A stretch of DNA of 64,000 nucleotides from Alphaproteobacteria bacterium UBA3635 (GTDB lineage Bacteria; Pseudomonadota; Alphaproteobacteria; Rs-D84), in contig DFKW01000003.1 of NCBI GenBank assembly GCA_002373935.1, positions 10,498-74,497 of the forward strand, given 5' to 3'. Positions 12,001 through 61,559 of this stretch are shown one piece after another (the stretch's first letter is position 1; every line of letters starts with the position of its first letter). A program made the translations under genes and the position numbers. A model generated the notes under the pieces. It saw nothing but the letters and a program-made list of their open reading frames with translations. It did no database searches and had not been told where the DNA came from.

Positions 12001-14480
12001 TAGATACGAAATTATCTGCGAAAAAAATTGTCACAGATGATAACTTGGGTACAAAACTTGGCACTCTGAAAGTTGTCACCGACGATAACATTGATTCAAA
12101 ATTACCAACAACCGTTCTCAGAACCGGCGCATTGACGGGCTATGCTAAAACATCAGATATATTTGATACAGACAATAAATTGATTGCATCAAAATTACCA
12201 TCCGGCGTTATTACTGACTCTAATTTAGATACGAAATTATCTGCGAAAAAAATTGTCACAGACGATAACTTGGGCACAAAACTTGGCACTCTGAAAGTTG
12301 TCACCGACGATAACATTGATTCAAAATTACCAACAACCGTTCTCAGAACCGGTGCATTGTCGGGCTATGCTAAAACATCAGATATATTCGATACCGACAA
12401 TAAATTGATTGCGGCAAAATTACCATCCGGTGTTATCACCAGTACCAATTTTGACGATGTAATGACTGCAAAAAAACTGGCAACCACCGATGATTTGCCG
12501 GTTGTTGACGAAACCACAATCAATAACGCATTGTCTAAATCTACAACACTCAGTGGTATTATTGATGACGCGGTAACCGGCAAAGGATTTTTAACCGACA
12601 GCGATTTAACCCAGGACAAATTGACCCAAAAATTAGGCAGTGCGTATTTAACCACATCAACATTACCGTCCGACATAGTTCGAACATCCAATGGTAAAAT
12701 CGACACTGATATTTTGCCATCTGATGTATTAAAAACCGGTGCATTGACGGGTTATGCAAAAACATCCGATTTATTAGATAACAACGGCATATTAAAAACC
12801 ACAACTATACCAACCAACCTGGTGACATCTGATGCGTTGACAACCCGATTGGGTGGCTATGCCACAACCAGCACGGTATCCGATTTAACGACACGCACGG
12901 CATCACTGGAATCAAACGCATTGACCGCCGACAATTTATCGGCAAAATTATCTGCGGAAAACAGTGCGGTAAAACAGGCATTATCAACCGCCGGATTTGC
13001 CCAAACGGGTGATATCACGACAACATTGAACAACACATTAAATGGCACAGGCGAGGGCAGTTTCGCCAGCCGCCTGAGCAGCGCGGGCGTGATAACAACC
13101 GGCAACATTGCGGAAAAATTGCCAACAAATGTGGTCACAACCACCGATGGCAAAATTGCCGAGGGTATATTGCCAACAACCGTTGCAAAAACGACAGATC
13201 TGAACGGTTTGGTTCGAACGACCGATATATTTGACAGCAACAATCAATTGGTTGCCTCGAAATTGCCGTCCAATGTTATAACAACATCAAATATCGCAAC
13301 CGATAATAATGTCAAGGCCGCGTTATCAAACGCAACAAACAATTCTTTGCGTGATTTGGGTTTGGTAAATGTCGATTCATCAACCGGTGCCGTCACATCC
13401 AAGGTTATCACATCGGACAACATCGCCACACAGGTTTCTAACAATTTACCGTCTAATGTTGTCAGAACAACGAACGACGGTAAAATTGCGGCGTCTGCAT
13501 TGCCTGATACAGTTGTTAAAACATCCGACATTTTGGACAGCAACAACAAATTAAAATTGGCGTTACCTGATACGGTTGTGACTACATCTAATATCGCAAC
13601 TGATAATAATATCAAATCTGCATTAACCAACGCCGGCTTTGCCCAAAGTTCCGATGTTTCCGCATTGGCAACCCGCACATCCACCCTGGAAACGGCCGCG
13701 GCCAAGGCAATCACGACGGACAATTTATCCGATACAACCGTAAAGACCGCACTGACCAATGCCGGATTTGCAAAAACATCCGATATCAATTCCCAGGTCA
13801 ACAACCAGGCCCTGACCATGTATGATTTAAGTAATATTTTAACCCAGGGCATTTTGATGGTTAAATCGGACGGCACATTGGGATTGGATCCAACAAAAAC
13901 ATCATCCGGTGTCGGAACAAAATTGAGTCGCGTTGGAAACATATCCAACATGACCGCATCAACCAGTATTGCAACATCGGTTGCGGCGGCGACATCTGCC
14001 GCGGTGGCTGCAGACGATATTAACGACGCGACGAAATGTAATTCTACGGACTATATGTATTGGGATACACGAAATACAAAATGTTTGAAATGCCCGGCCG
14101 ACGAACCAAACATCACAAAATTCATCGGGGGCAGTGCGCGTTGCCAATGCGCTGACCCAATGACAGAATTTTCTGTGGCGGGCGGTATTTGCACCAAGGT
14201 TTCCGAAAGCCAGGCGCGTTGCACGCAAACAGAAAATATGTATTGGAACACCAAAGAATCTGGCAGTTGTCAAAAATGCCCCGAAAATTCATACTACAAG
14301 GGCAATACATGTTTATGCCAAGACGATAACATGATGTTAAACACATACGAGGGACGTTGCATGGAATGCCCACCGGAATCTGAGTATGACCCAGAAACAC
14401 GGTTATGTACTTGCAAAAACGGTAATTCAATCAACCATGAAAAATGGATAACCGACCCGGCACAGGCGTGTGCGCGATAG
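9096..14480 (+). CDS. Giant secreted repeat protein with collagen-like triplets, 75-aa tandem repeats and a C-terminal CxxC cysteine-rich domain (1794 aa)
   Basis: A signal peptide (MKKFGFFAFFCGLCGAAWAAASIRA) is present. The repeat families match 4528-8469. Collagen-like motifs are RGQRGAAGADGATF and KGADGATF. The C-terminus has multiple CxxCP motifs. Confidence 0.85.
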   Translation: MKKFGFFAFFCGLCGAAWAAASIRASSVPLAGGTTVSTPKVTVSTISTTPDSDNAKPTSNPTNVDINTSRIAFTSPLAKTNRYYVPTSGSGGTTTHTSNTEQEIAAMQQQIDDLVRKQTQMQDNLPTTVQTAIKTSDLTKNDSFNDAISELQESVVSDSAIDSKINEKLVDKGIVDTGGNLQVATKDEIQPIPLSQKLESTLAVKFAKKSDYTPSKIATNIANDTAAVTTLSNRIGTDESTVKNIIKSDLQKRGIVDNNNQLQVATKDELPVIDTETVSAALQNTPAFDNLVTQNLTNRGIYDANNQLQLVKKSEITPDFLATKLDSKYAKTGDIATLSNRLSIIQDGDENTSGSIANKLKTAGFARTSDITAESLSQKLDNIYVRPSAITPTALSNKLANVFVTPTELSNKNFATKSELPQINEETVSAALRNSSILDDSITRNLKSKRILNDNAELNVATKSSVDSLSNNVSSVINTLATKNEVAALDNRFAKTTDVTADAIADKIARSDSAKQTLSGQIGPNTDQVNNIVTNKLKSTGILSNDNNETLQVATKDEINTTNAAISSVQNDITTLQTQTNTIANNQLTRTDVENAIKSVDLTTQNDTLKTKLAAMDAIDAKVITTDNADDVLKDKYASKMLEDSVAKLNADENTPGSIANKLQVATADLVKTSDITTEELGKKLDSKYASKTLESTVENMNGDITNQNSLLYKIKNNSEIRTALKGDTGAAYIPNLDDEGNLSWRDEKGAIITSLGTKNIRGQRGAAGADGATFIPALAADGTLSWTKGSANSELPTARNIKGADGATFIPAFDSATGKISWSRGTSGQTPDAIKIAKTDSELDTLVAGKISADTTIAKKTDLSEFAKTTDVFENGKLIASKLPSGVITESNLDTKLSAKKIVTDDNLGTKLGTLKVVTDDNIDSKLPTTVLRTGALTGYAKTTDIFDTDNKLIAAKLPSGVITDSNLDTKLSAKKIVTDDNLGTKLGTLKVVTDDNIDSKLPTTVLRTGALTGYAKTSDIFDTDNKLIASKLPSGVITDSNLDTKLSAKKIVTDDNLGTKLGTLKVVTDDNIDSKLPTTVLRTGALSGYAKTSDIFDTDNKLIAAKLPSGVITSTNFDDVMTAKKLATTDDLPVVDETTINNALSKSTTLSGIIDDAVTGKGFLTDSDLTQDKLTQKLGSAYLTTSTLPSDIVRTSNGKIDTDILPSDVLKTGALTGYAKTSDLLDNNGILKTTTIPTNLVTSDALTTRLGGYATTSTVSDLTTRTASLESNALTADNLSAKLSAENSAVKQALSTAGFAQTGDITTTLNNTLNGTGEGSFASRLSSAGVITTGNIAEKLPTNVVTTTDGKIAEGILPTTVAKTTDLNGLVRTTDIFDSNNQLVASKLPSNVITTSNIATDNNVKAALSNATNNSLRDLGLVNVDSSTGAVTSKVITSDNIATQVSNNLPSNVVRTTNDGKIAASALPDTVVKTSDILDSNNKLKLALPDTVVTTSNIATDNNIKSALTNAGFAQSSDVSALATRTSTLETAAAKAITTDNLSDTTVKTALTNAGFAKTSDINSQVNNQALTMYDLSNILTQGILMVKSDGTLGLDPTKTSSGVGTKLSRVGNISNMTASTSIATSVAAATSAAVAADDINDATKCNSTDYMYWDTRNTKCLKCPADEPNITKFIGGSARCQCADPMTEFSVAGGICTKVSESQARCTQTENMYWNTKESGSCQKCPENSYYKGNTCLCQDDNMMLNTYEGRCMECPPESEYDPETRLCTCKNGNSINHEKWITDPAQACAR
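11697..12441 (+). repeat. Tandem repeat, 225-bp unit, about 3.3 copies, inside the 1794-aa gene
   Basis: Units start at 11697 (222 bp), 11919, 12144 and 12369 (partial). They are nearly identical at the DNA level and encode AKT(T/S)DIFDTDNKLIA(A/S)KLPSGVITDSNLDTKLSAKKIVTDDNLGTKLGTLKVVTDDNIDSKLPTTVLRTGAL(T/S)GY. Confidence 0.95.
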
Positions 14481-15041: not shown

Positions 15042-17243
15042 TTAAAACATCGGTGGGAAACAATCCGTTCCGTCATCCGGACAGCAAACTTTTTGTCCGT
15101 TTACCGTTGAATACGTTTCACCCGGACAACAACCATTTGCATCGGGCGCCACATCACCCGCACACAAATTACCGCCACCATTATCAGAACTTGTAAAGAC
15201 ATTTTCTTGGGATACATTGTATTCCGGTTTATTTACAACCGGCGCAACACCCATATCCGACGCATCCGTCGCATCAATCATGGGTTCAACATCCGGCGCC
15301 ACAACCGTATCAATCACATCATTGTTCGTCGATACATCATCCGCCACATTTGATGTCACATCCGACGTTTTTGTTGTATCCGTCGCATTCGCAATTTTAT
15401 CCAAAGATGTTTCAACCGCCTGGGTCAATATTGGTTTCGCCGGCGATGTCACCTCATCACCACTGGCAATAAATGGATTCGTATCATCCGTCACATCAAC
15501 ATCCGCCGGTGTCGCAATTGGCGGCACATTTTCCGCAACAACGGTCGGCATTACATCATTGGACACATTTGACCGATGATACAGCCACAACGTGAACACC
15601 GACAACGCAATCAAGACCATCAACAACACATAATACAACAACCCAGGTTTATGCGTTGTGGTCGTTTGTTTGGGAATATCGTTCACAACTTGTGGCGCGG
15701 CACCAGGAACCGACGGGCGCACCCCCGCATCCACATTTGTTGCCGCAACAACCGGTGCGGGCGCCGCCACAACATCCGGTGTCACCGGTACAGGTGCCAC
15801 AACCGTTGGTTTTACAGAATCATCCGTTGCAACATCATCCGATGTGTTTTCATTATCCGCCCCCGGCGCAACAAAATTTATATTTTGCAAAGAATCCAAC
15901 ACCGGCGCATTATGCGTATCCTGTGCCACTACATCGTCCATATTCATCGCATCGTTTGTCGCGATTTGTTCTGTCGCCATATCCGTCGCCGGGGCCGTAT
16001 CCGACACATCATCATCCGCACTGTTCCAAAAAACATCGTCCAGTTTAACATCCGCGTTATTATATTCGTCCGGCAATTTCACCGCATCCATAATCGCACG
16101 CGGTGGTTCAAACGCAACGGCCGGCGCATTATCAGCGTCATCCGCATCGTTATCATCCACATCATCTGTTTTATTATCCGTATCGTCATCAGATTCATAA
16201 ATCTCTGGCAAATCCGGGCCCACATTGCCGCCCACGTTTACATCCGAACCGGATACATTTTCATCCACATCAAACGATGTTGATGCACCAAAATCAATTG
16301 GTTTGAACGCAATTTTATCATCCAGTATATTCGGGTCTTTATCAAACAGTGGTTTTATTCCCGTATTATCCACATCCATATCATAATCTGCATCCATCTC
16401 GGCATCGGCATCCGTGTCCAAATCCGATGCATCATCCACATCCGCCACCACATTGTCACGCGCCACCGCGTCATTATTGCGCACCGCCGCAACCGGTGCC
16501 ACCGACGCAATTCCGGTTTTCGATTGATGTTTTTTATCACCGCGTCCACGAGGCAACAAATCCAAAACAGATTGCGCCGCGGCCATATCTTCCTGGGCAG
16601 ACAGCAATCGTTTATTTGCGTTTTCCAACCGTTTTTGCGCACGTGCCAATTTATCATTTAACGCATCCAATGCGGCCTCGGCCTTTAATATTTTTGCCGC
16701 AGATTCCTTGGTCGGTTCGCGTCCAATACCACGACGCAGATTTGCGATTTTTGCACGCGCCGCCTTTATTTTGGCCTGTAGTTCAACAATAGAATCCGAT
16801 GTTTTATCAATTGTATCCTGCGCATTTTCCATAACCGCACGCGCCAAACCAATCCGTTCCGTTGCCGAATTTCGCACCGCCGCGACACGAAAATCCGCCA
16901 AATCGTTCAAATATTCATCCAGATTATCGCCATTTTCATACGCACGAATTAAATCATCATATACCGCCAATCCGTCGTATTCCACATCCAGTTTTTGATA
17001 TTTATTATCTTTTTTAGGCCGTACCAATTCCAAATTCATCCCATAATCATTTGCCAACACATCGTCCCACTTGCGATTTCCATGCGATGTCATAACCAAC
17101 AACACATTTGGTTTTATATCATTTGTTGTCAAATCCAAAACAAACACCAATTTGCCATTGGCGTCATAAAATGCACGAACAGAATTACCGCCGATTTCAT
17201 ATTCGGTTGATTTTAATGGAACATTTTTCTTCTCGCTTGGCAT
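15042..17243 (-). CDS. Bitopic membrane protein: N-terminal cytoplasmic coiled-coil domain, long acidic D/N/V-rich tract, one TM, Cys-rich exported C-terminus (733 aa)
   Basis: A GGGGGA RBS lies 22 nt downstream of the gcrA stop. The TM segment is LLYYVLLMVLIALSVFTLWLY. The C-terminus is CAGDVAPDANGCCPGETYSTVNGQKVCCPDDGTDC. No family recognised. Confidence 0.7.
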   Translation of the reverse strand: MPSEKKNVPLKSTEYEIGGNSVRAFYDANGKLVFVLDLTTNDIKPNVLLVMTSHGNRKWDDVLANDYGMNLELVRPKKDNKYQKLDVEYDGLAVYDDLIRAYENGDNLDEYLNDLADFRVAAVRNSATERIGLARAVMENAQDTIDKTSDSIVELQAKIKAARAKIANLRRGIGREPTKESAAKILKAEAALDALNDKLARAQKRLENANKRLLSAQEDMAAAQSVLDLLPRGRGDKKHQSKTGIASVAPVAAVRNNDAVARDNVVADVDDASDLDTDADAEMDADYDMDVDNTGIKPLFDKDPNILDDKIAFKPIDFGASTSFDVDENVSGSDVNVGGNVGPDLPEIYESDDDTDNKTDDVDDNDADDADNAPAVAFEPPRAIMDAVKLPDEYNNADVKLDDVFWNSADDDVSDTAPATDMATEQIATNDAMNMDDVVAQDTHNAPVLDSLQNINFVAPGADNENTSDDVATDDSVKPTVVAPVPVTPDVVAAPAPVVAATNVDAGVRPSVPGAAPQVVNDIPKQTTTTHKPGLLYYVLLMVLIALSVFTLWLYHRSNVSNDVMPTVVAENVPPIATPADVDVTDDTNPFIASGDEVTSPAKPILTQAVETSLDKIANATDTTKTSDVTSNVADDVSTNNDVIDTVVAPDVEPMIDATDASDMGVAPVVNKPEYNVSQENVFTSSDNGGGNLCAGDVAPDANGCCPGETYSTVNGQKVCCPDDGTDCFPPMF

Positions 17244-17265: not shown

Positions 17266-17892
17266 TTATTTTTTCTTAGGTGCCGTGAACTGGTACGCCT
17301 GGCGGCAGTGTTCATAACAATACGGTTTTCCGACAAATACCGTCTCGCCACAAAAATGGAAATTTTCCGAATCCGGATCCCCAATCGGCCAACGACACTG
17401 ATTTGGTTTCAACGCCGCCATTTCCAACGAGTGCTGAATAATACGTTGATGCATTGCCAAATTTGCGCCCGATTTTTTACCCACCTCGACCGCACGAGGC
17501 AAATGCTTTACAACCGGTTTTTCCGGCGCAACCGCACGCTTTGTATTCTTGGATTCTTTATCTGCTTTATCTGTGACCTTTTTCGGTGCAGATTTTTTTA
17601 CCGGTTTAACCTTGGGCATAACAACCGGTTTTACCGGCGCAATTTTTTTAGAAATTGGCAATTTAGATTTTTTTGCCGCGGGCTTTTTCGCCGCCGCCGC
17701 ACCCGTTGTCGCCGCCGGTTTACGCACGGCACTGCCGGTGGTGGCCTTTAAGTTCCAACCCAAACGATTTAATTTACCAACAACGGCGTTCTTACTCATT
17801 TCCAAACGTTTACCGATTTCCGATGTTGATAAACCCTTGCCAACCAGCACCTTTAATTTTTTTAATTTATTTGCGTCCCAACCTGTTGCCAT
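17266..17892 (-). CDS. gcrA: GcrA cell-cycle regulator
   Basis: The N-terminus (W..NKLKKLKVLVGKGLSTSEIGKRLEMSKNAVVGKLNRLGW) and the C-terminus (CRWPIGDPDSENFHFCGETVFVGKPYCYEHCRQAY) match the conserved GcrA ends. Confidence 0.9.
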   Translation of the reverse strand: MATGWDANKLKKLKVLVGKGLSTSEIGKRLEMSKNAVVGKLNRLGWNLKATTGSAVRKPAATTGAAAAKKPAAKKSKLPISKKIAPVKPVVMPKVKPVKKSAPKKVTDKADKESKNTKRAVAPEKPVVKHLPRAVEVGKKSGANLAMHQRIIQHSLEMAALKPNQCRWPIGDPDSENFHFCGETVFVGKPYCYEHCRQAYQFTAPKKK

Positions 17893-17965
17893 ATCACAAA
17901 AATCCTTGTTTTATATATATGTACCAGTGTATCATACAAACGAATCGCATTGCAAGGGGGAATTG

Positions 17966-18427
17966 ATGTTTTTTTACATTTTTTTTGGTGCGTTATTATT
18001 GGGTGCCGCGTTTTGTGCGTGGCGCATATCTGTGGCGGATTTCCGGCGCAGAATCATCCCTGACGCATATTTATTTCCATTGATGCTGATTGGATTGATT
18101 GTGACACATTTTTTCCCATGGATATGCAGTACCGCCGAATCGGTTGCAGGTGCCGTTTTAGGGTATGCCATGGCGGCAATTGTTGGAATTATTTTTGAAC
18201 ATTTTTCACGCGATAAAACAAACACACCAATTGGCATGGGCGACATAAAATTATTGGCGGTGGCTGGATTGTGGCTGGGAACATTTGGATTGGCCATTGC
18301 ATTGGTGTTTTCGTGCATATTTGGCATGATTTGGGGACATAAACGGCACCAAAAATTCATCCCGTTTGCACCTTTTTTATTTGCCGGCGGATTTTTGTCT
18401 TTCATTACAATTTTGTTTTTGTTATAA
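17966..18427 (+). CDS. A24-family prepilin-type aspartic peptidase (CpaA-like, peptidase-only)
   Basis: The ORF is trimmed to the ATG at 17966 because the upstream part is antisense to gcrA. It is 153 aa and polytopic. The two catalytic Asp motifs are ADFRRRIIPD and GMGDIKLLAVAGLWLG. Confidence 0.8.
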   Translation: MFFYIFFGALLLGAAFCAWRISVADFRRRIIPDAYLFPLMLIGLIVTHFFPWICSTAESVAGAVLGYAMAAIVGIIFEHFSRDKTNTPIGMGDIKLLAVAGLWLGTFGLAIALVFSCIFGMIWGHKRHQKFIPFAPFLFAGGFLSFITILFLL

Positions 18428-18451
18428 TCGCATCATAAGGGAGTAGGGGAA

Positions 18452-19549
18452 TTGTCATCAAACCATAAATTTTTACCGGTTTTCTGGACATTTGCGATAC
18501 TGTGCATGGCGACACAAACACACGCCGCACCGGCACCTTTTTCGCAATATGGCCTGATTCAAAACGCCCAAAACTATTCATCCAACCCATTTTATACACC
18601 CGGCACATATACCGCATCGTATCCAAAAATCGTATATAATTCTGGTCCGGCGCTGAAACCCGCCGATTGCCAGGTCACTGTTGCCGCACTGGTGCAAAAT
18701 ATATGTGCCACACATAACAATTGTCGAAATATGAATTTATCGGATGTTCGCCCGGAAATCATGGTCGCATTATCGAAATTACCGGTATATAATTACGCAT
18801 CCAGTTGCGCCGGCTATATTGATGGCGAATATCAAAAATATATAAATCCAAATTCAAATACAACGGCGGCGGAATCGGCGCGGCGTATTATGCCAACGAT
18901 AAATGCGACCCCAACCGCGACCGAAACCGCTTTTCCAACCGGCACACCAATTGCGACATCAACAAAAAAACAGACCGAATATGAAACCCGTGCGGCGGAA
19001 TTGAAATCTCTGCAATCTCAAACCCAAACATCGACCGACAATATCACGGCCGCGGCATTTCCGAAAACATTTGACGATTTATCTTTTGAACAAAAAAATG
19101 ATATTAAACGCGCCGGATATGAACCATATAAAAATGCCCAAACATATGTTCCATTGAAGGTCGAACGCGATGATAAATTATACCACAGTGCGACCGACGC
19201 CCTGTGTGACGAAATTGCATCCGTCCGCACATGTATTGCAAAATATGGTGCCGATGAAGAGGCCGCCGAAACAATGATGTTTAACGAGGCCGGACGTCAA
19301 ATCGACGGTTCCGGCAACCAAACCGCCGAAGAATTTATAAACACCAAAATGAGTACCTATGGCACCGCCCTGGGCGAGGCACTGGAATCCCCGTGCACAT
19401 GCACGCGCAATTCGCGTTTTCGTGATGAAATATTACACATCATGGGCATAAACGCATGCGACGAAGAATTCGAAAAACACAAAGACGAAATAAAAAACAG
19501 ATACTTTGAGGAATTAAAACAAACATTTCGCACAATGGGGATGAATTAA
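18452..19549 (+). CDS. Secreted hypothetical protein (365 aa)
   Basis: TTG start 7 nt after AAGGGAG. The signal peptide is FLPVFWTFAILCMATQTHA-AP. There are several Cys pairs. No family recognised. Confidence 0.6.
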   Translation: MSSNHKFLPVFWTFAILCMATQTHAAPAPFSQYGLIQNAQNYSSNPFYTPGTYTASYPKIVYNSGPALKPADCQVTVAALVQNICATHNNCRNMNLSDVRPEIMVALSKLPVYNYASSCAGYIDGEYQKYINPNSNTTAAESARRIMPTINATPTATETAFPTGTPIATSTKKQTEYETRAAELKSLQSQTQTSTDNITAAAFPKTFDDLSFEQKNDIKRAGYEPYKNAQTYVPLKVERDDKLYHSATDALCDEIASVRTCIAKYGADEEAAETMMFNEAGRQIDGSGNQTAEEFINTKMSTYGTALGEALESPCTCTRNSRFRDEILHIMGINACDEEFEKHKDEIKNRYFEELKQTFRTMGMN

Positions 19550-19551
19550 AA

Positions 19552-20346
19552 ATGAAAAAAATATTTATGATTTTTTGTTGTGTTTGCATACTTGAAATAG
19601 TGCCTCGCACATGTTTTTCGATTGACTTATCAATGTCTGACCTTTTAACTTTAAGCGATGATGGTTATCACAATCGTGGCAGATGTACCATTCAAACAAA
19701 ATGCGAATCAGATGAAGAATATATACATACAAATGGCAAATGTTACATATCAGACGACGATGGTGGTGACACCTTTTGTGAAGATCAAGCTGTATGTATC
19801 CTAGGACGCACAGAAGAAAAAGAACACAGTAAAATCGATATAAACAGATGCTGGTATGCGATTACCGACGGCGACGATTATTGGTTGCTTATTGACAACA
19901 AGATACCTGACTGCCAAAAATATCCAAAAGCTCCAAATAAATATCCTGTTTTTTTAACAAATGATAATAAAATATTAAGTGATAACACCGGCAAAATAGC
20001 AAAATCTATTGTATCATCACAAAATTCTCGTTTGTGGCTGTTCGAGCAAAGGATTTCAAAGGAAGGATTTGAAAACCTAATGAACGAATACAATATTAAA
20101 TGCATTGCATATATTTCTGATAGCGATTTACCAAACAATGTATCCAGCGACGACGGTTCCGGTAACGGTCCCGGTGATGAACCTGATGATGGTGATAATT
20201 CTGGCGGCAGTGGTTCTGGGGATGAAACATCCGGTGGGGGCACCGCGCAACCCACACAACCCGACGATAAAAAAATCCATCGGCACACGGTTCAAACGTG
20301 GCTGGACGCATTGGATGCATATCGCGCCACATGTAAAAAACAATGA
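19552..20346 (+). CDS. Secreted Cys-rich hypothetical protein with G/D/S-rich tail (264 aa)
   Basis: The start lies 2 nt after the upstream stop. The signal peptide is MKKIFMIFCCVCILEIVPRTCFS. The first ~500 nt are visibly CpG-poor relative to neighbours. Confidence 0.65.
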   Translation: MKKIFMIFCCVCILEIVPRTCFSIDLSMSDLLTLSDDGYHNRGRCTIQTKCESDEEYIHTNGKCYISDDDGGDTFCEDQAVCILGRTEEKEHSKIDINRCWYAITDGDDYWLLIDNKIPDCQKYPKAPNKYPVFLTNDNKILSDNTGKIAKSIVSSQNSRLWLFEQRISKEGFENLMNEYNIKCIAYISDSDLPNNVSSDDGSGNGPGDEPDDGDNSGGSGSGDETSGGGTAQPTQPDDKKIHRHTVQTWLDALDAYRATCKKQ

Positions 20347-23291
20347 TAAAAAAAATTGTATGTGTTTTAATAATTTTATTTGCGCCATTTGTGGCACATG
20401 CCGCCGACACATATTCGGTTGACGAATTATTACAACGCAACCCCGATAACACAAAATGCGCAACCGCGGTTTTTGCCGATGCATTACGCGCAACAGTTGA
20501 CACACTAAAAAACACCGGCAGCCCCGATGAACAGGCACCACAAGATGCCGACGGTTCCGAAATCGATACATGGATTCATTTGGCGTTTTCTATGCCGGCA
20601 ACATTAAACAAAATCTTGGAATGCCCCGAGGTTAAAAATGCCGCCGACAATGATACTATTGTTTTTGAAACGGTATCTTATACATTTCCAAATGGCCGCA
20701 CAATTGATATAAATTACGAAACACAAAAATCTGTATTAAAACAAAAATTATTATTGGCAACGAAACCAAAACTGGCAACCGACGACATCAGTCCCAATAT
20801 CGTGGCGGATGCCGAAAAAGGCACGGTGTGGGTAAATGTTGACCCGGCATGGTATGCGATTTTGGTGACCGAACATGGGGCGCTATCCGACTATGTTGGA
20901 CCGGACAAAACAAATATTGTTGCATTGCGTTATTTGACGGATAACATAAAATCATTATATCCTCGCAACCGCCGATGCACATCGCGTTCTGCGATTGCCG
21001 GCGATGGCGACATGATAAATCGCGCGGTCACACGCACGGTTGGCGGCGGACTGCCACGCGACGAAAACCAAACAGATGCCGAACGCGAACAGGCCGACAT
21101 CGCCGAAAGCAACGATTATTACGTCTATGGCGATGCAGATTTACGATGGATTACCGCACTGGAGGTTGCCGCCGATGTTGTTTTAACCGTCGTAACATTT
21201 GGCGGTTATGAAATTGTGAACGGCACATTAAAATTCGCCCGTGCAACACGCGCATTTAACAAATCGCGAACTGCATTAAAAACACTGCGCACATCAAACG
21301 ATGTTATGCGTTGGATAAAATCATCCGCACGTGCCGACGATGTTGCACGTGCCATAAAATACGCCGAACGCGCCGACGATGCATATTCCACAATTGCTGG
21401 CATCAATCGCACGGCGCAACAAACATTAAAACAAACATCGCGTAAATTGGAACTGTTACGGGCGCGCAATGCCGATAAAAAAACAATTCGCACCGTGGAA
21501 TCTGAATTGGAAAGTGTCACAAAACAGGCCGCCGCCGCCGAACGCGCCGCTGCCACGGCTGAAAAAATTAAATCCGCAGAAACAGCAATCAAAAACGTGT
21601 CCAACACGGAAAAAACCATCGCAAATATGGAAAAAGAAATCAAAAATATTGAAAACAATATGAAAACATTGAAAAAAAACAGTCAACTGTATCGTAATCA
21701 ACAATCACAATTGACAAAAATAAAAAACAATTTGAACGGGGCAAAATCACAATTAAAAAACGTCCAAAAAACGGCAGAACAAGCAAAAACAGAAATCGCA
21801 GATTTGAAACAAACATACATCACAGAATTGACAGAATTACAAAAAACACACGCGTCTGAATTGACTGCACTGGAAAAATTGGACGATGTCAAAGATTACC
21901 GTGATTTATTAAACGCAAAACGCGAATTGGCACATACCGCATATTTATTACGCCAGGGCAAGGTTGCATGGCGCGCCAATCGTGGATTATTACCGGTACG
22001 CGCGTATCGTGCGGCACGCGCCACACGCGCGGGATTAAAAAGTGCAAAAAATATGGACCGCGCCGTAAAAACCGTTCGTGCCAACACCAGTGGCGCCGCC
22101 GCCAAGGTCAACGATTGGTTGTTCCACAGTACCATGAAAAACATCACCGCAATTTCCAAGGTTCCCGCCGCAATCAGTGGATTGAACATCGCAGTAAAAG
22201 TTGTGGGCGATATGTATGATGTCACCGATGTTTCAACCGGCGATTACACTAACAATATTGATATAGAACCATTTTTATTACTGGCCGCGGATAATTTACC
22301 GGGATTTGAAAACATTGTCAATCACGGTATGTGGTTATTCTGGGCCGGGTCATCAACATCCGCCAACGATGATGATGCCGCATTTTTACAGGCCATGAGT
22401 TTTGCCGAAAAATTTCACCAAGACCTGGTCGATGTCCAAGACGAGGCCGGCATTGCCGCATGCAATGTTGATATATATGTTGTGCGCCCAATTATCCGAA
22501 ATCCCGGCACAGACAACCAAGAATTATATTACCTGTTCATGAACGATGTTCCATGGACAACAAATGGATATAATGAAACAACAGCAAACAAACAATTGAA
22601 CACAAACGAAATCGAAAACAATGGCAATGTGACATCCTATATAAACATTGATGCCACCGGTGGCATATCCGGTACATCAAAAAACCTGAAATGGACCGAA
22701 CCACCATATGATGGGTCAAGAATAGGCATGGCTTGCACAAAACCATCGTCATCCGGCGGAACATTTAAATCTGATATTTTAACCACGGGGCGTTATGCGT
22801 CCGTATCGCCCGCATTTGAAAAGGCAATGATTACAAAATTTCGAACCGAGGGCGGGTGTGGGGCACACCCCGAAGATCCCGGCGGATACACATGTTTTGG
22901 CGTATCATCCCGATTTTTTCCTGCGGCAAAGCGTCCCGGTTTTTCCCGTGCCAATGCCGAAGACATTGCGTATAACAGTTTCTGGAAAAAGCACAACATC
23001 GACAAATTACCCGACGCAATCAGTGGCGATGTTTTTATGGCATTATGGGGCACCGGCAGCAAGAAAAACTCCATCGGTTTACTGCAAGATTTGTTAGGTG
23101 TGAAAAAAACAGGCATCGTTGACAATGCCACCATCACCGCCGCAAAAAATTATACCGGTTCGGATTTGCGCACACGATTTTTGGACCGGCGCGAGGCACA
23201 ATTTCGCCAAGGCAAAAAAACATTTCGTCGCGGTTGGTTAAACGGATTAAACCTGTATCGCGCCAATGGTTGCCACACAATCGCCGAATAA
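20343..23291 (+). CDS. Large secreted coiled-coil protein with C-terminal GH108-like muramidase and PG_binding_3-like module (982 aa)
   Basis: ATGA start/stop overlap with the upstream gene. The signal peptide is MIKKIVCVLIILFAPFVAHA. The central region is K/A/E/T-rich coiled coil. The C-terminus (TEGGCGAHPEDPGGYTCFGV...LQDLLGVKKTGIVDNATITA) matches the GH108 EGG..D.GG.T..G pattern plus the PG-binding pattern. Confidence 0.75.
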   Translation: MIKKIVCVLIILFAPFVAHAADTYSVDELLQRNPDNTKCATAVFADALRATVDTLKNTGSPDEQAPQDADGSEIDTWIHLAFSMPATLNKILECPEVKNAADNDTIVFETVSYTFPNGRTIDINYETQKSVLKQKLLLATKPKLATDDISPNIVADAEKGTVWVNVDPAWYAILVTEHGALSDYVGPDKTNIVALRYLTDNIKSLYPRNRRCTSRSAIAGDGDMINRAVTRTVGGGLPRDENQTDAEREQADIAESNDYYVYGDADLRWITALEVAADVVLTVVTFGGYEIVNGTLKFARATRAFNKSRTALKTLRTSNDVMRWIKSSARADDVARAIKYAERADDAYSTIAGINRTAQQTLKQTSRKLELLRARNADKKTIRTVESELESVTKQAAAAERAAATAEKIKSAETAIKNVSNTEKTIANMEKEIKNIENNMKTLKKNSQLYRNQQSQLTKIKNNLNGAKSQLKNVQKTAEQAKTEIADLKQTYITELTELQKTHASELTALEKLDDVKDYRDLLNAKRELAHTAYLLRQGKVAWRANRGLLPVRAYRAARATRAGLKSAKNMDRAVKTVRANTSGAAAKVNDWLFHSTMKNITAISKVPAAISGLNIAVKVVGDMYDVTDVSTGDYTNNIDIEPFLLLAADNLPGFENIVNHGMWLFWAGSSTSANDDDAAFLQAMSFAEKFHQDLVDVQDEAGIAACNVDIYVVRPIIRNPGTDNQELYYLFMNDVPWTTNGYNETTANKQLNTNEIENNGNVTSYINIDATGGISGTSKNLKWTEPPYDGSRIGMACTKPSSSGGTFKSDILTTGRYASVSPAFEKAMITKFRTEGGCGAHPEDPGGYTCFGVSSRFFPAAKRPGFSRANAEDIAYNSFWKKHNIDKLPDAISGDVFMALWGTGSKKNSIGLLQDLLGVKKTGIVDNATITAAKNYTGSDLRTRFLDRREAQFRQGKKTFRRGWLNGLNLYRANGCHTIAE

Positions 23292-23354
23292 AAACCTTGT
23301 TGATTTAATATGCAAATTTGTTTTATAATAAACCCAAGAGGTCAGGGGAAATTT

Positions 23355-23657
23355 ATGAAAAAAATATTTGTTTTTTTATTTGCGCTTTTAATATGTCGCA
23401 ACACATTTGCGTATCAAAAAATATCATCGAACGAATTTGGTGTGGGCGATGCCCGTAACCAAAACATTGTCGTAAAATGCACAACCCCGACGGGCGGGAT
23501 ATCTGACGAAAAATGCGCATTACGTCGATATGCAAAATGCATAAATAATAATTGCACAACATGGGGTGCGTGGCGTGATTTGCGCAACACCACATCCAAC
23601 TATCAAACATGGCAAGATGCGGCAAACGCATGCTGTCGCAAAAAGGGATTAAGATAA
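23355..23657 (+). CDS. Small secreted Cys-rich protein (100 aa)
   Basis: The ORF is trimmed to the ATG after AGAGGTCAGGGG. The signal peptide is MKKIFVFLFALLICRNTFA. The mature part has 7 Cys. Confidence 0.6.
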   Translation: MKKIFVFLFALLICRNTFAYQKISSNEFGVGDARNQNIVVKCTTPTGGISDEKCALRRYAKCINNNCTTWGAWRDLRNTTSNYQTWQDAANACCRKKGLR

Positions 23658-23668: not shown

Positions 23669-23695
23669 ACACCGCCCAATTGCGGTATTTTTTTT
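23669..23695 (+). terminator. Rho-independent terminator
   Basis: ACCGC-CCAATT-GCGGT followed by ATTTTTTTT. Confidence 0.6.
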
Positions 23696-23781
23696 AATTC
23701 ATAAAATCTCACAAAAAATACGGTTCTGCCACCCGAAGCTTTAGCGAAATGTGGCCTGCCACCCAAAGATTTAGCGAAGGG

Positions 23782-23858
23782 TGGTGGATGAGAGCGGACT
23801 CGAACCGCTGACCTCTTCGATGTGAACGAAGCGCTCTAACCAACTGAGCTACACATCC
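23782..23858 (-). tRNA. tRNA-Val (anticodon CAC)
   Basis: The anticodon arm is CTTCG-TTCACAT-CGAAG and the T-loop is TTCGAGT. CCA is encoded. There is one U-U mismatch in the acceptor stem. Confidence 0.82.
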
Positions 23859-23935
23859 AAATAAACGACCTGCCATCAGAAATCTACAAGGCGAAGATTT
23901 TGTGGCCTGCCACCCGAAACCCACAGGGCGAAGGG

Positions 23936-24022
23936 TGGTGGGGATAGTGGGACTTGAACCCACACGATCGCAATGATCAAAGGATTTTAAGTCCTCAGCG
24001 TCTACCATTCCGCCATATCCCC
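23936..24022 (-). tRNA. tRNA-Leu (anticodon UAA)
   Basis: Type II tRNA with a long variable arm. The anticodon arm is GAGGA-CTTAAAA-TCCTT and the acceptor is GGGGATA/TATCCCC. CCA is encoded. Confidence 0.88.
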
Positions 24023-24108
24023 AGGACTTTTTGTATTATTTTTGCCACGCTTTTGATGACCCGCTACCAATAAATTGGTGGCCTGCCACCCGAAGCTTTA
24101 GCGAAGGG

Positions 24109-24184
24109 TGGTGGAGCTGATGGGACTCAAACCCACGACCTCTACGATGCGAACGTAGCGCTCTATCAACTGAGCTACAACCCC
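24109..24184 (-). tRNA. tRNA-Ala (anticodon CGC)
   Basis: The anticodon arm is CTACG-TTCGCAT-CGTAG. The G3:U70 identity pair is present in the acceptor stem GGGGTTG/CAGCTCC. CCA is encoded. Confidence 0.9.
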
Positions 24185-24289
24185 AGAACTTTTTTTCAAC
24201 TATCGCGGCTTTGCCTGACGCAAAGACACATGCTTGCCAGCCGAAGCATTGGCGAAATGTGGCCTGCCACCCGAAGCATTGGCGAAGGG

Positions 24290-24374
24290 TGGTGGGCATA
24301 AGAAGACTCGAACTTCCATGGGTTGCCCCACCAGTACCTGAAACTGGCGCGTCTACCAATTCCGCCATATGCCC
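24290..24374 (-). tRNA. tRNA-Leu (anticodon CAG)
   Basis: Type II tRNA. The anticodon arm is CCAGT-TTCAGGT-ACTGG and the acceptor is GGGCATA/TATGCCC. CCA is encoded. Confidence 0.9.
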
Positions 24375-24557
24375 ATAAAACTCGTATGCTGCCATATGCC
24401 CCGCGCATACAAATGCGTTGCACATAATAACCTATTGCAACAAAAAAATCAACACTTTTTTATAATTTTTTTTATAAAACTTGGCAACTTATTATGAAAA
24501 AACAATGATAATTTGCTTGCCACGGTTTTCTGAAATTTGCTAAAATTTTTATCAGAT

Positions 24558-27335
24558 ATGAGAAGGATTGGAATAACACTGGTTTTCTGCTTGGTTTTCG
24601 TAACGGGCGGCATCGCCGCATCGCGCGTGCAGAACACGTCCCCAACAATGCGGGCGGCAACCACCACACAACGTGTAAAAACAAAAACTGTCGCATCACG
24701 TCCATCTGTGCGTGTTGCAACACAAAAAACAACCGGACGCGCCACATTACCTCAAACAAACACCACCGCCACACGCGCAACATCCCAACGGGGAACCAGC
24801 ACTGCACGCGCGGCAAATATTGCACGCGCCACGACCGACACACGCACGGGTGCCGAATACGAACAATGCAAAACCGCATATTTCGCGTGTATGGACCAAT
24901 TTTGCCAATTAAAGAACGACGAATATCGCCGCTGTTCATGCAGTGACCGCATAACATCATTGCAATCCGCGCGCGACAATCTGATACGCGCGGGCGAACA
25001 ATTGACGGCATTTAATGAAAACCTGGACATTGTGGGCAAAACCGCGGCCCAGGCCACGGCCATGAACACCGCATCCGACGGCGAATTGGCACTGATGCGC
25101 GACAAATCTGCATCCGCCGCATTATTGACCGCAATTATGAATTCCATCCGTGGTGACAACAGTCGCGTTGAAAACAACCAACTGTCTGATTTGAACAGTA
25201 TTGATTTATCTTTCGATGTCGCCAATTCTTTTGGCACCGCGGGCATCGGTCAAACCGTTGCGGCATATAACGGGCGCGCATTATATTCGGCGGTGTATCC
25301 ACAATGTCGCACGGCGGTCGCCACAAATTGTAATAACGCATCATTACAACGTGCGGTGAACGCATATTTAATGGCAATTGAACAAGATTGCAACACGGTT
25401 CAAACCGCCATCAACACAAAACAAAAGGAAACACACGCGGCAATCCGTGAAAGTGGTGCAATGCTGGATATGGCGCGCGCCGACAATCATCGCGCACATA
25501 ACTCTGACGATATCGCGACATGTATTGCAAACATTGAATCCGCCATACTCAGTGAAGAAGTTTGTGGCGCAAATTATCATAAATGCCTGGACAATGGTGA
25601 ATACATTGATGTTTCAACCGGCGCACCAATTGCTGGCGTGGTGGACTTCTATAAATTGGGAACAATGCTGACGTTCAGTGCGGGTCGCAACAACGCCGAA
25701 CAAAAATTGGCACAAAACCCAAACAACCGAACATTCGTCACGAACTTTGAAAAACGCGTCAAACAATTTGCCGAACCTGCATTGAACAAATGTTATGACG
25801 ACGCGGACACTGCATGGACCGATTATTTGAACAAGGCATTATTGGACATTTATTACGCCCAACAATCCAAGGTTGATGAAATAAAGCAGGGATGTTTTGA
25901 TTTTGTATCCGCGTGTTATATGAATGGATCAACCGCAATGACCAATGCAATGCAGGGCCTGGTTGCCGCACAAACAACCGTATTAAATCCAAATATATTA
26001 AATTTAAATCGCAGTTTATGTTCTGATTATATTGCGTCTTGCAATAATATGTTTGACGGCAATATTGTCCAAGATTACATTGCACATCGTCACGACACGG
26101 ATTCTTTGACCGCATGTCGCGCCGTTGTCCAACAATGCTTTGACAATTATGGCGGTCAAAATTACGAAAACTTTTACAACCCATCCAGTGGCCTGTTCGC
26201 ATCGGGCGATGCCCCAAAATGGTTTTCGTTATATGAATACGACGATGCTGGCAATAAAAAATCCGGATATGTATCCGAATGCGCAAAACAGTTGGCACAA
26301 ATCGACGCGTGCGCGGACAATATAGAAAAAGTTTTCGGTGGGTTTGATTATTACCCGACGGCCGGCATTTATGATAAATACAAATATAACGAACAACCAC
26401 GTGTATTACGTTCAACCGGTATCGCGACCGAGGTTTATAACCAAATCATCGACATATTACAAACCGGATGTGGCAACCTGGACGGAACATTTATGAATGT
26501 CCAAAACCTTGGACTATACAGTGCAAATTACAACAGCAATTCTTTTTGCACCGCAACATTTAACAACGAATCCAGTCGGTATTACCACCTGTACACAGAT
26601 TACAGTATTGGCAAAGAAGTAACATCTGTTGCCACCATCGGTCGCAAGTTATCTTTGGCAAGTGGACCAGGTCTGCAACCCGTAATATCATCCGGAACAA
26701 ATACAGGCGCCAATTTATCAATATGGCCCATTGAACAAACAACAAATACATACCCAGAAAACATGTGCCCACGTGATTATAATGCAAATGTTGATGTTCA
26801 ATCATGGGGCGCGTGCCTGTGTTGGGAAAACGGTGGCCGCCGCAGCAACAACGGCACCACAACGCGTTGTGTTGCAACGTTCCCGGCACAACCGTTGGTA
26901 AATTATCTGATTTCCAATACCATTGAACAAATAACAACCCCCGGATTAAACAACGAATGTTCTATTTCCGATACAAACACAAATAATTGGTATGTGACAA
27001 ATGCCAGCAACCCACAAAACCTGACACGAACAAACATGTTTATCAAATGGCCATACAGTGGAAATATTGCATCACCAACCGAACAAGATTGGTGCAACGC
27101 AAACATCAACAACAAAAACCAGGTCTGTCCATTTGGTGTCCATGTTGATACGAACGGCAATTGCAAGGAATGTCCCGAAAACTGGTTGGAATCAAATGGT
27201 ATCTGTTGTCCATCCGATTACACATACGATGGCAGCACACAAAAATGCACCAAAACAGAAAATGGCACCACATTGACCGTACCGGCACAAAAAACATCAT
27301 CTGAACTTATGGGCAATAATTTTCCTGATGGCTAA
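24558..27335 (+). CDS. Large secreted Cys-rich protein (925 aa) with T/R-rich N-terminal tract and C-terminal CxxCPEN module
   Basis: The ATG at 24558 gives the signal peptide MRRIGITLVFCLVFVTGGIAAS. There are many conserved Cys. The C-terminus is CPFGVHVDTNGNCKECPENWLESNGICCPSDY. No family recognised. Confidence 0.75.
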   Translation: MRRIGITLVFCLVFVTGGIAASRVQNTSPTMRAATTTQRVKTKTVASRPSVRVATQKTTGRATLPQTNTTATRATSQRGTSTARAANIARATTDTRTGAEYEQCKTAYFACMDQFCQLKNDEYRRCSCSDRITSLQSARDNLIRAGEQLTAFNENLDIVGKTAAQATAMNTASDGELALMRDKSASAALLTAIMNSIRGDNSRVENNQLSDLNSIDLSFDVANSFGTAGIGQTVAAYNGRALYSAVYPQCRTAVATNCNNASLQRAVNAYLMAIEQDCNTVQTAINTKQKETHAAIRESGAMLDMARADNHRAHNSDDIATCIANIESAILSEEVCGANYHKCLDNGEYIDVSTGAPIAGVVDFYKLGTMLTFSAGRNNAEQKLAQNPNNRTFVTNFEKRVKQFAEPALNKCYDDADTAWTDYLNKALLDIYYAQQSKVDEIKQGCFDFVSACYMNGSTAMTNAMQGLVAAQTTVLNPNILNLNRSLCSDYIASCNNMFDGNIVQDYIAHRHDTDSLTACRAVVQQCFDNYGGQNYENFYNPSSGLFASGDAPKWFSLYEYDDAGNKKSGYVSECAKQLAQIDACADNIEKVFGGFDYYPTAGIYDKYKYNEQPRVLRSTGIATEVYNQIIDILQTGCGNLDGTFMNVQNLGLYSANYNSNSFCTATFNNESSRYYHLYTDYSIGKEVTSVATIGRKLSLASGPGLQPVISSGTNTGANLSIWPIEQTTNTYPENMCPRDYNANVDVQSWGACLCWENGGRRSNNGTTTRCVATFPAQPLVNYLISNTIEQITTPGLNNECSISDTNTNNWYVTNASNPQNLTRTNMFIKWPYSGNIASPTEQDWCNANINNKNQVCPFGVHVDTNGNCKECPENWLESNGICCPSDYTYDGSTQKCTKTENGTTLTVPAQKTSSELMGNNFPDG

Positions 27336-30445: not shown

Positions 30446-31132
30446 ATGATTGAAAAACAAGAAATATTTACTTTATTGAACGGCGCAATAAAAATGCGCA
30501 CATCATGTTATAATCCAACATCTGATGCCGTATGGTTGGCGGCATTGCCATGTGCGGAACCCGAAACGGTTTTGGATGTCGGCATTGGGTCGGGCGGGGT
30601 ATCTTTGTGCCTGCAACACCATTTTCCAAACGCGAAAATTACGGGAATTGATTTATCCCCGGCAATGTTGAACGCGTGTTCGGACAATATGAAATTGAAC
30701 AAGTATCAATTTGATTTAATAAATGAAGATATTTTTACATGGTCCACCGAACAAACATTTGACCTGGTTATAACAAATCCACCATATTTTGTCGGCACGC
30801 CATCGCGTTCAAATCCGGACGCACACCATAACGCCGATTTAACCCGTTGGATACGGCGATCTTTGGCGCGCGTAAAACCACGCGGATATATTTGCGTTGT
30901 CATTGATGCCGCCCGCATGGCCGAGGTTGTCCGTATCATCGCAAAAAGTTGCGGTCACGTCACAATCATCCCGCTGTTTGGCACAAAACAGGTTGCCGAA
31001 CGCGTTCTGGTTCGTGGCCGATTGGGAACAAACGGTGCATCGGTGGTGCATTTGGGTTACCCAATGAATTATGATCCAATTTTGCGTGATGGCTTGACTA
31101 TCGAGAAAATTTTGTCTAACATACGGGCATAA
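30446..31132 (+). CDS. SAM-dependent methyltransferase with NPPY motif (TrmN6/YfiC-like)
   Basis: Motif I is VLDVGIGSGGVSL and motif IV is VITNPPYF. At 228 aa, the size and layout resemble tRNA (adenine37-N6) methyltransferases. Confidence 0.7.
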   Translation: MIEKQEIFTLLNGAIKMRTSCYNPTSDAVWLAALPCAEPETVLDVGIGSGGVSLCLQHHFPNAKITGIDLSPAMLNACSDNMKLNKYQFDLINEDIFTWSTEQTFDLVITNPPYFVGTPSRSNPDAHHNADLTRWIRRSLARVKPRGYICVVIDAARMAEVVRIIAKSCGHVTIIPLFGTKQVAERVLVRGRLGTNGASVVHLGYPMNYDPILRDGLTIEKILSNIRA

Positions 31133-61256: not shown

Positions 61257-61321
61257 TTTTTTTCCTTTTTTATTCAACGTTAAATCGTAAAAAGGCCTTC
61301 CTTTTTAGGCACTGATATCAG

Positions 61322-61492: not shown

Positions 61493-61559
61493 CAGATAAT
61501 ATCAGGCATGGGCATAATTTTTGCACGGCCTGTTTTTTTATAAACACAAAGGAGATTTT

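Follow-up and report, generated by a model that had tools for sequence, protein, structure and literature searches.

To our knowledge, all of the A24 proteases that have been studied well cut pilin-like proteins. The GH108 muramidase SagA of Brucella is a membrane-anchored autolysin that makes openings in peptidoglycan for a secretion system, and GH108 enzymes digest DAP-type peptidoglycan efficiently; PhiA has been proposed as the inhibitor of SagA in Brucella, and purified PhiA did not inhibit it (PMC8334348). The cell-cycle cofactor GcrA has a preference for YGAKTCK sites (PMC4647560). Here we describe a tightly packed operon of gut bacteria with tiny genomes that brings together a prepilin-type protease, new protein families and a predicted tethered muramidase limited to certain clades.

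The bacteria belong to the order Rs-D84, which is common in the guts of ruminants, horse, pig, chicken, rodents and termites; we know of no member that has been cultured. Rs-D84 genomes are smaller than 1 Mb and lack respiration, standard transporters and steps of glycolysis; these organisms have been proposed to depend on a partner (PMC12306168). The genes of the cluster are all kept, and because the five-gene block persists in nearly every species with a genome below 1 Mb, it is likely to be important for the envelope or for life with a partner.

The cluster spans positions 17966-23657 of the 64-kb window (the whole stretch of DNA that was analysed), with its genes running in one direction and separated by gaps of 24, 2, -4 and 63 nt (Table 1). 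A preliminary description had reported five open reading frames, these gaps, an ATGA overlap and a terminator, and our ORF calls together with a stem-loop followed by a T-run matched all of them exactly.

Table 1 Features of the five-gene cluster, its upstream flank and the scaffold protein (nucleotide positions in the window; aa, residues of the 982-aa scaffold)
Feature	Position	Strand	Description
gcrA	17266-17892	-	PF07750, E=1.8e-30; cell-cycle sigma-70 cofactor; divergent neighbour with common control region
gcrA/A24 divergent control region	17893-17965	.	73 nt; near-invariant across 62 loci
Promoter-like element TTGTTT	17906-17911		18-nt spacer to the next element
Promoter-like element TATCAT	17930-17935		preceded by TG
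GANTC site	17942-17946		within CGAATCG
Gene 1, A24 peptidase	17966-18427	+	153 aa
Gene 2, secreted protein	18452-19549	+	365 aa; TTG start, GGGAGTAGGGG ribosome-binding site upstream
Gene 3, variable slot	19552-20346	+	264 aa
Gene 4, scaffold	20343-23291	+	982 aa; ATGA overlap with gene 3
GH108 module of gene 4 product	22758-23267	+	PF05838, PHROG and fold matches
Promoter of gene 5	23300-23329	+	TTGATT, 18-nt spacer, TATAAT; scan match
Gene 5, small 6-Cys protein	23355-23657	+	100 aa
Intrinsic terminator-like stem-loop	23671-23696	+	ACCGC...GCGGT, then T-run
Scaffold N-domain	aa ~30-262		acidic; after signal peptide
Scaffold hydrophobic segment	aa 267-288		invariant E274, near-invariant D278
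Scaffold coiled-coil hairpin	aa 289-590		basic
Scaffold second segment	aa 598-622		weakly hydrophobic, Lys-containing
Scaffold C-domain	aa 626-745		acidic, ~120 aa; GMWLxWxG, DDDAA, VVRPIIR, MNDxPWTT; then linker
Scaffold GH108 muramidase	aa ~806-975

The earlier suggestion that this is an undescribed gene set is supported. The genes are co-conserved, and the cluster adjoins gcrA in the same gene order in 64 of the 67 species-level Rs-D84 genomes with sufficient flank; the gaps are operon-like, with medians of 24 nt between the A24 gene and the next (54 loci), 1-6.5 nt within the block and 63 nt ahead of gene 5; and the scaffold family has no Pfam or PDB relatives, accessory GH108 aside. Loci with the common gene order encode proteins of 31-60% identity. 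Gene-order conservation alone is weak evidence here, since Rs-D84 genomes are generally syntenic, the ACPS, LpxB and tRNA neighbours being conserved too. In three divergent loci (L024, L064 and L067) an inversion or transposition parts the A24 gene, which stays beside gcrA, from the remaining genes, so co-transcription with A24 is not universal; after the rearrangement the genes still lie no more than 1-2 kb apart. Homologous loci also contain gene fusions, joining the N-module of the second protein either to a slot protein or to a scaffold-like paralogue. The conserved core comprises the A24 peptidase, the N-module protein, a hypervariable Cys-rich slot, the scaffold and the 100-aa protein, and is operon-like in most loci. 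As judged from sequence comparison, the cluster is specific to the order Rs-D84/Candidatus Enterousia and its composition matches no described system. It is in this composition that the apparent novelty lies, the fold comparison having covered the full-length scaffold and 365-aa models.

The start of the block is conserved to an unusual degree relative to its products. Wherever flank is available, the three rearranged loci included, gcrA is divergent from the A24 gene, and the control region between them is near-invariant in 62 loci, as against only ~55% identity of the proteins from those loci. Besides the promoter-like elements, it contains an invariant CGAATCG, the A24 ribosome-binding site AAGGGGG and a TCCTTG that reads, on the opposite strand, as the gcrA ribosome-binding site. 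The GANTC within it is found at a fixed position in 61 of the 62 loci, compared with 18% expected, and fits the sequence preference of GcrA. This near-invariant promoter suggests that GcrA/CcrM control persists in an extremely reduced alphaproteobacterium, and the site could act in gcrA autoregulation instead of in control of the A24 operon.

The 982-aa scaffold belongs to a family defined by its N-domain and C-domain, with 141 representatives among 1.84 billion proteins. The preliminary description had passed over the conserved C-domain, which fills the interval between coiled coil and GH108, and the second segment before it. Family-mean net charge is -16 for the N-domain, +25 for the hairpin and -17 for the C-domain. 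The second segment has a family-mean hydropathy below 1.0, and with a segment so weakly hydrophobic the entire scaffold could be periplasmic; AF2 confidence is low at both hydrophobic segments. Foldseek searches with the full-length scaffold model (PDB, viral) returned only GH108 and generic helical bundles, and a likeness of the model to alpha-pore-forming toxins was rejected at a Foldseek rmsd above 30 Å.

The 365-aa protein carries an N-module composed of SQYGLIQNxQNYSSNPF, a 4-Cys helical domain (aa 70-131), FPxGT and FPxTxxDLSF...GYEPY, together with a C-terminal helical bundle specific to its clade. The part shared by its 85 homologues has no Pfam domain in any of them, a PDB profile search gave no match, and Foldseek of the model against PDB gave nothing significant; AF2 gives a pLDDT of ~90 at aa 70-131 and 247-361 and models the N-terminal motif as disordered. 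We rejected SQYGxIQNxQNYSSNPF as a general sorting signal because it is found about once per locus. The 264-aa slot protein is secreted, with 13 Cys and a Gly/Asp/Ser-rich linker, and has homologues confined to the 8 closest loci. Elsewhere the slot holds at least four other families without homology to it detectable by hhalign, making at least five unrelated families overall, and in some lineages a scaffold paralogue. Ten slot proteins searched against Pfam showed no recurrent family, no toxin domains and one weak, sub-threshold SseC translocon match; Pfam on these and 20 short-form scaffold homologues turned up two sub-threshold matches and a CPL1-like Cys repeat, and nothing else. A DDDAA-like string common to both had raised the idea that slot proteins are distant copies of the scaffold C-domain, which was unsupported (hhalign probability 0.3%); a comparison of the slot protein with the scaffold N-domain gave a weak hint (E=0.002, probability 13%).

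Searches of Pfam, NCBIfam, PHROG and PADLOC found no family for the uncharacterised parts of the four non-A24 products, the GH108 module aside, and otherwise returned only coiled-coil noise (SMC, Rad50, JetC and tape-measure proteins). All four had been called secreted and without family; the latter part stands, and hydropathy shows a signal-like N-terminal hydrophobic segment in three. The 365-aa product failed the hydropathy scan, and its signal peptide was read from the sequence as a hydrophobic N-terminal stretch ending HA|AP.

The proposed GH108 muramidase at the end of the scaffold was recovered by profile and fold searches. PF05838 matches aa 834-905 (E=1.9e-12, 48 bits against a threshold of 21.2), the PHROG endolysin match reaches 1.4e-20 and the PDB profile match to Brucella SagA (7dnp) 1.6e-9, and Foldseek aligns the module to 2ikb (TM 0.68) and to the phage ZliS lysozyme (TM 0.73, rmsd 2.8). 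The putative catalytic residues E836, D845 and T850 in TEGGCGAHPEDPGGYTCFG align to E17, D26 and T31 of SagA. PF09374 (PG_binding_3) gave no HMM match at E<=0.1; NMB1012 and residues 5-160 of SagA both align across that half. GH108 is found in 15 of 80 loci only, about 80% of orthologous clusters having a scaffold without it, so the core activity may be something other than wall cutting. Where present, it is joined in three ways, to the scaffold, to the GYEPY module or to the full N-module, and these independent attachments link it to the complex. Its distribution makes GH108 an accessory to the system and not its centre.

Our best guess, which we hold tentatively, is an envelope complex that is wired to the cell cycle and holds a muramidase in position; the broader reading of an envelope-spanning or wall-remodelling apparatus is plausible. 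The cluster is best explained neither as a pilus, Tad or T2SS locus nor as an effector-immunity pair. Transcription of the block would start from the near-invariant promoter region common with gcrA, with the 6-Cys gene adding a conserved promoter of its own. The scaffold would be an inner-membrane protein with its acidic N- and C-domains on the periplasmic face and its basic coiled-coil hairpin, of variable length, in the cytoplasm, a topology for which the charge of its flanks counts (basic inside, acidic outside), and the acidic helix with E274 and D278 would pair in the membrane with the Lys-bearing second segment. GH108 would be tethered periplasmically, like Brucella SagA, either by the scaffold or by the FPxT...GYEPY module of the second protein. 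Given this tethering and the gcrA-linked control region, we propose that the sacculus is cut locally, at a cell-cycle set point. The N-module protein and an abundant 6-Cys protein would be fixed periplasmic partners, with the fast-evolving Cys-rich slot protein as the exposed part, passing or contacting the wall or cell surface.

Gene 1 does encode the peptidase-only A24 protease of the preliminary description: it matches PF01478 with 58.7 bits (gathering cut-off 26.5, E=9e-16), D25 (ADFRRRIIPD) and D93 (GMGD) are invariant in an alignment of 24 orthologues, and the product has five hydrophobic segments, no methyltransferase domain and the size of TadV/CpaA. The nearest plasmid-borne A24 peptidases share 33% identity at most. 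The enzyme is predicted to be catalytically intact and would either mature a component of the complex or serve substrates encoded elsewhere. Among the Pfam families annotated in the window and the flanking loci there is no secretion ATPase (PF00437), platform protein (PF00482), secretin (PF00263), pilin or pseudopilin, which upholds the earlier observation that no pilin, Tad or T2SS genes are nearby. One strict and one relaxed pilin-like pattern gave no credible candidate substrate in the window and 82 related loci (L001-L082; 1.4 Mb); the class III signal peptide of such a substrate would combine a basic leader and a hydrophobic helix with Gly at -1 and usually Glu at +5. A KPG|LLYY string in a conserved membrane helix of an upstream 733-aa protein was rejected as an A24 site because its -1 residue is T, S, G or N among orthologues.

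It is possible, though on balance unlikely, that the A24 peptidase has no functional tie to the genes downstream of it. It would then mature Flp, type IV or pseudopilins encoded elsewhere and would have its promoter region and surroundings in common with those genes only because reduced genomes seldom rearrange. The high general synteny agrees with this, and L024, L064 and L067 moved or inverted other genes while keeping A24 beside gcrA; even there, however, the rearranged genes remain close by, and 53 of 54 loci keep the 24-nt spacing between A24 and the gene after it. No fusion joins A24 to another cluster product, and these products begin, as read from their sequences, with a Sec-type hydrophobic stretch, not a class III signal peptide. 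A pilin substrate would nevertheless have to come from genomes in which 1.4 Mb of related loci contain no pilin-like motif and the window and annotated flanks no T2SS, T4P or Tad Pfam family, and a published survey reports type IV pili for another lineage only, not for Rs-D84 (PMC12306168).

The hypervariable slot bears on a second alternative, a contact-dependent apparatus in which the muramidase and the Cys-rich proteins reach or bind a partner or prey bacterium, which we consider quite unlikely. Unrelated slot families swap between clades, as recognition or effector parts would, and one of them gave the weak SseC match, but the ten slot proteins carry no toxin domains and the locus encodes no secretion ATPase, secretin or outer-membrane channel. 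The activity of GH108 enzymes on DAP-type peptidoglycan would be apt for such a task; here, however, GH108 is attached to a protein that has membrane-like segments, is missing from most clusters and has no immunity-like gene co-varying with it. If true, a contact apparatus would fit the partner dependence proposed for Rs-D84 alongside its metabolic gaps.

We regard as improbable a non-pilin A24 substrate inside the operon, namely a scaffold cut at the cytoplasmic face of its second membrane segment. Such a cut would free a pilin-like fragment consisting of an N-terminal membrane helix, a globular domain and the muramidase; on this reading the operon would encode a new kind of envelope or surface machine that depends on A24 and is built at a cell-cycle set point, with which partner-dependent minimal Alphaproteobacteria would breach a cell wall and display fast-evolving surface proteins.

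The 100-aa protein is secreted, is ~81 aa long in its mature form and has a C-terminal GLR and 6 invariant Cys; few products of the locus are as conserved (mean column identity 73%). Its family has no Pfam match, no PDB match by profile search and no MliC/PliC (PhiA-like) HMM match. The promoter-like element previously assigned to this last gene is upheld by a layout conserved across loci, CCTGTTGT, ~17 nt, TATAAT and AAGGAG, as read in 40 of ~50 extracted upstream regions. The preliminary description had offered a secreted PG-hydrolase effector (the 982-aa protein) paired with an inhibitor or immunity protein (the 100-aa protein), and although the analogy with SagA and its proposed inhibitor PhiA is apparent in a small Cys-rich periplasmic protein with its own promoter directly 3' of a GH108 fusion, this reading is highly improbable and fails because the 100-aa gene comes after the scaffold gene in 74 of 80 loci whether GH108 is there or not, GH108 being present in only 15, while the protein itself is not co-diversifying and matches neither MliC/PliC nor a PDB sequence, and PhiA failed to inhibit SagA when purified.

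An envelope complex positioning a muramidase, as we favour, would add a new mode of tethering for GH108 enzymes, with one complex and three ways of attachment. The three new protein families are fresh targets for structural biology, and an A24 protease that appears catalytically intact and has no pilin nearby poses a testable question about the whole A24 class.

Compared with known systems, the A24 peptidase resembles TadV/CpaA of Tad/Flp loci in its 153-aa size, its five hydrophobic segments and its DxxxxIPD and GxGD Asp motifs. Unlike those loci, this one has no Flp pilin, pseudopilin, TadA/CpaF ATPase, TadB/C platform or secretin in the locus, window or flanks, and its A24 gene is always divergent to gcrA and usually first in an operon of non-pilin secreted proteins. 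The control region resembles GcrA/CcrM promoters of Caulobacter in having a YGAKTCK-matching GANTC a few bases 3' of a -10-like element, near sigma-70 elements; the Caulobacter sites are methylated. The muramidase shares its GH108 fold and Glu/Asp/Thr residues with SagA of Brucella abortus (VirB type IV secretion system; 7DNP), Salmonella TtsA and Neisseria NMB1012. As in SagA, a helical C-terminal half follows the catalytic part, although PF09374 is not detected by HMM here, and tethering to the inner membrane, not release, is predicted for the scaffold GH108. SagA, however, is 245 aa long and is anchored in the membrane once, at its C terminus, whereas here the module makes up the C-terminal 18% of a 982-aa scaffold; no secretion-system genes lie near the cluster, and sister clades hang GH108 on a different protein of the same operon.

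The five co-directional genes of the cluster lie exactly where a preliminary description had placed them, with intergenic gaps of 24, 2, −4 and 63 nt, and the terminator it proposed is present as a stem-loop with a T-run. As it also held, the first product is an A24 peptidase (PF01478; 58.7 bits, E=9e-16). At this position the public ENA annotation shows an antisense 143-aa open reading frame (7632-8063 (−) of locus L001, equivalent to window ~17974-18405 (−)); the PF01478 match and 563 homologous clusters show that the predicted plus-strand peptidase gene, and not the antisense frame, is the real gene. The peptidase gene has therefore been overlooked by automated annotation in some of these bins.

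Features of the cluster, its control region and its surroundings in the window
Feature	Position	Strand	Size	Remarks
Cys-rich protein gene	4528-8469	+	1313 aa	very large, secreted
Cys-rich protein gene	9096-14480	+	1794 aa	very large, secreted
733-aa protein gene	15042-17243	−	733 aa	beyond gcrA; kept in 65 loci
gcrA/A24 intergenic region	17893-17965		73 nt	almost invariant in 62 species-level loci
GANTC site	17942-17946			within gcrA/A24 region
A24 peptidase gene	17966-18427	+	153 aa	
365-aa gene	18452-19549	+	365 aa	TTG start, GGGAGTAGGGG ribosome-binding site ahead of start
Slot gene	19552-20346	+	264 aa	
Scaffold gene	20343-23291	+	982 aa	ATGA overlap with slot gene
100-aa gene	23355-23657	+	100 aa	
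Stem-loop with T-run	23671-23686			3′ of 100-aa gene
Four tRNA genes	23700-24400	−		Val, Leu, Ala, Leu
Cys-rich protein gene	24537-27335	+	932 aa	very large, secreted; kept downstream of cluster in many loci
M23 peptidase gene	31132-32409	+		
Bactofilin gene	32440-32796	+		directly after M23 gene
Tyrosine recombinase gene	52740-53663	+		XerC/D-like; further upstream of YadA-like gene
YadA-like gene	59313-61277	−	654 aa	trimeric autotransporter anchor
Serine resolvase gene	61521-62162	+		adjoins YadA-like gene

Scanning one genome per species with the 982-aa protein gave relatives in 253 species, and 80 loci were kept. A check of gene-neighbourhood conservation, suggested in the preliminary description, found the order gcrA (minus strand), then A24, 365-aa family, slot, scaffold and 100-aa family, in 64 of the 67 loci whose upstream flank was long enough, with median identities over the best aligned segment of 56% for A24, 39% for the 365-aa family, 36% for the scaffold and 52% for the 100-aa family. 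Median gaps within the block are 1-6.5 nt, with 63 nt ahead of the last gene. Three divergent loci, L024, L064 and L067, are rearranged; A24 is still divergent to gcrA and all genes lie within a few kilobases, a single inversion from the second gene through the last explaining the order in L067. Since their breakpoints fall exactly downstream of A24 and upstream of the scaffold gene, the block behaves as modules: A24; the second gene and slot; and the scaffold and 100-aa genes. L064 and L067 come from termite-gut bins, and L024 from a bin titled Muribaculaceae that is probably mis-binned.

The gcrA/A24 region contains TTGTTT-N18-TATCAT and a fixed CGAWTCG. Its GANTC occurs in 61 of 62 loci, where 18% would be expected, and fits YGAKTCK, the motif preferred by GcrA (PMC4647560); this match suggests that gcrA, the operon or both may be under cell-cycle control. 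The −10-like element TGTATCATACA, which is close to a palindrome, could be used by gcrA or the A24 gene.

Because both catalytic aspartates are invariant among orthologues, the A24 protein, 33% identical to its nearest plasmid-borne relatives, is a predicted active enzyme under selection. Consistent with the earlier remark that pilin, Tad and T2SS genes were not visible nearby, no T2SS, T4P or Tad family occurs in the window, pattern-based searching of related loci, 1.4 Mb in all, turned up no pilin-like gene, and a class III signal is absent from every cluster product. That the A24 gene is an unrelated neighbour of the other cluster genes is a reading we consider unlikely; the gap after it has a median of 24 nt and is at most 30 nt in 53 of 54 loci.

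Profile searching of 1.84 billion representative proteins gave 141 scaffold-family members, of which the three weakest checked share the same gene context. In alignments, a signal peptide precedes a conserved N-domain with three conserved cysteines, a hydrophobic helix (E274 invariant, D278 near-invariant), a coiled coil of variable length (about 130-300 residues), a Lys-containing segment of weak hydrophobicity and a strongly conserved C-domain (GMWLxWxG, DDDAA, VVRPIIR, MNDxPWTT). Most members end there, at about 580-700 aa; a linker and GH108 are added only in the window's clade. From the family-mean net charges (N-domain −16, coil +25, C-domain −17) and the basic coil-side flanks of both hydrophobic segments we infer that the scaffold crosses the membrane twice, its hairpin lying in the cytoplasm, the second segment being too weak for certainty. 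The AF2 model has pLDDT <50 at 249-296 and 601-634, and Foldseek matched the whole model only to the GH108 fold and to helical bundles of a generic kind.

Apart from A24 and GH108, the cluster products gave only coiled-coil noise against Pfam, NCBIfam, PHROGs and PADLOC, in keeping with their first description as lacking a recognised family. The 365-aa family, with no PDB relative by structure or by sequence, has a confidently predicted four-Cys helical domain, then a GYEPY module, and a C-terminus that differs by clade; its motif SQYGLIQNxQNYSSNPF is nearly invariant though disordered. The slot is hypervariable, with at least five families lacking detectable mutual homology, either as separate genes or fused to the second protein, and in some lineages it is a diverged scaffold paralogue; ten slot proteins yielded no recognised domain.

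Exact and near matches are gut or rumen metagenome bins labelled Alphaproteobacteria or Candidatus Enterousia; the order is Rs-D84. The rest of the window holds housekeeping genes together with genes for some very large, secreted Cys-rich proteins (no Pfam family in the 1313-aa and 932-aa products, scanned directly) and a YadA-type adhesin. The encoded LpxA/LpxB and YadA-type outer-membrane anchor show that the predicted envelope is two-membrane. The M23-bactofilin gene pair is known from cell-shape systems of other bacteria. At the N-terminus of the 733-aa protein is a coiled coil; the protein also carries long acidic stretches of low complexity, a membrane helix whose sequence is strikingly conserved (YYxLLxxLIxLSxFTLWLYQ) and a variable tail, with a Cys-rich CCPGE...CCP...CFPP end in many lineages. 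Each tRNA gene is followed by a ~30-45-nt repeat, GGCCTGCCACCCGAAGCxTTAGCGAAGGGTGGTGG, whose CCACCC/GGGTGG can pair into a hairpin that may serve in processing or as a terminator; a break in one public assembly falls right at this stretch. Rs-D84 genomes are smaller than about 1 Mb, without flagella or respiration and with incomplete glycolysis; a partner-dependent life has been proposed, and type IV pili are reported only for another lineage (PMC12306168). A contact-dependent apparatus directed at partner cells is, in our estimate, improbable.

For the proposed C-terminal GH108 plus PG_binding_3 module, Glyco_hydro_108 (PF05838) matched aa 834-905 (E=1.9e-12), the module aligning with Brucella SagA (7dnp, 1.6e-9) and NMB1012; PF09374 was not detected by HMM search. 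Among loci with parsed clusters, GH108 occurs in 15, fused to the scaffold C-terminus in nine; in five it is encoded by a separate gene, where it follows a copy of the second protein's FPxT...GYEPY module, and in two cases, L080 and P0130, it follows the full conserved N-terminal module of the 365-aa family. These three independent, varying attachments argue that the muramidase would work with the complex, as an accessory part. The 100-aa protein (six invariant cysteines, C-terminal GLR) has the promoter ascribed to it, the layout being kept upstream of orthologues. It occurs whether or not GH108 does, which rules out the dedicated immunity role once proposed for it and makes an effector and immunity pair very improbable.

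The original interpretation is supported in part, including its view of an undescribed gene set, here found co-conserved. We tentatively favour an envelope complex specific to this lineage and probably timed by the cell cycle, which would tether the muramidase and carry a fast-evolving exposed subunit. Because no known system shares its composition, the cluster, judged with the whole-model fold comparison, is new in make-up. Its GH108 module resembles SagA, whose E17, D26 and T31 match E836, D845 and T850 of the 982-aa protein; SagA is anchored in the membrane and acts as an autolysin, opening peptidoglycan for a type IV secretion system (PMC8334348).
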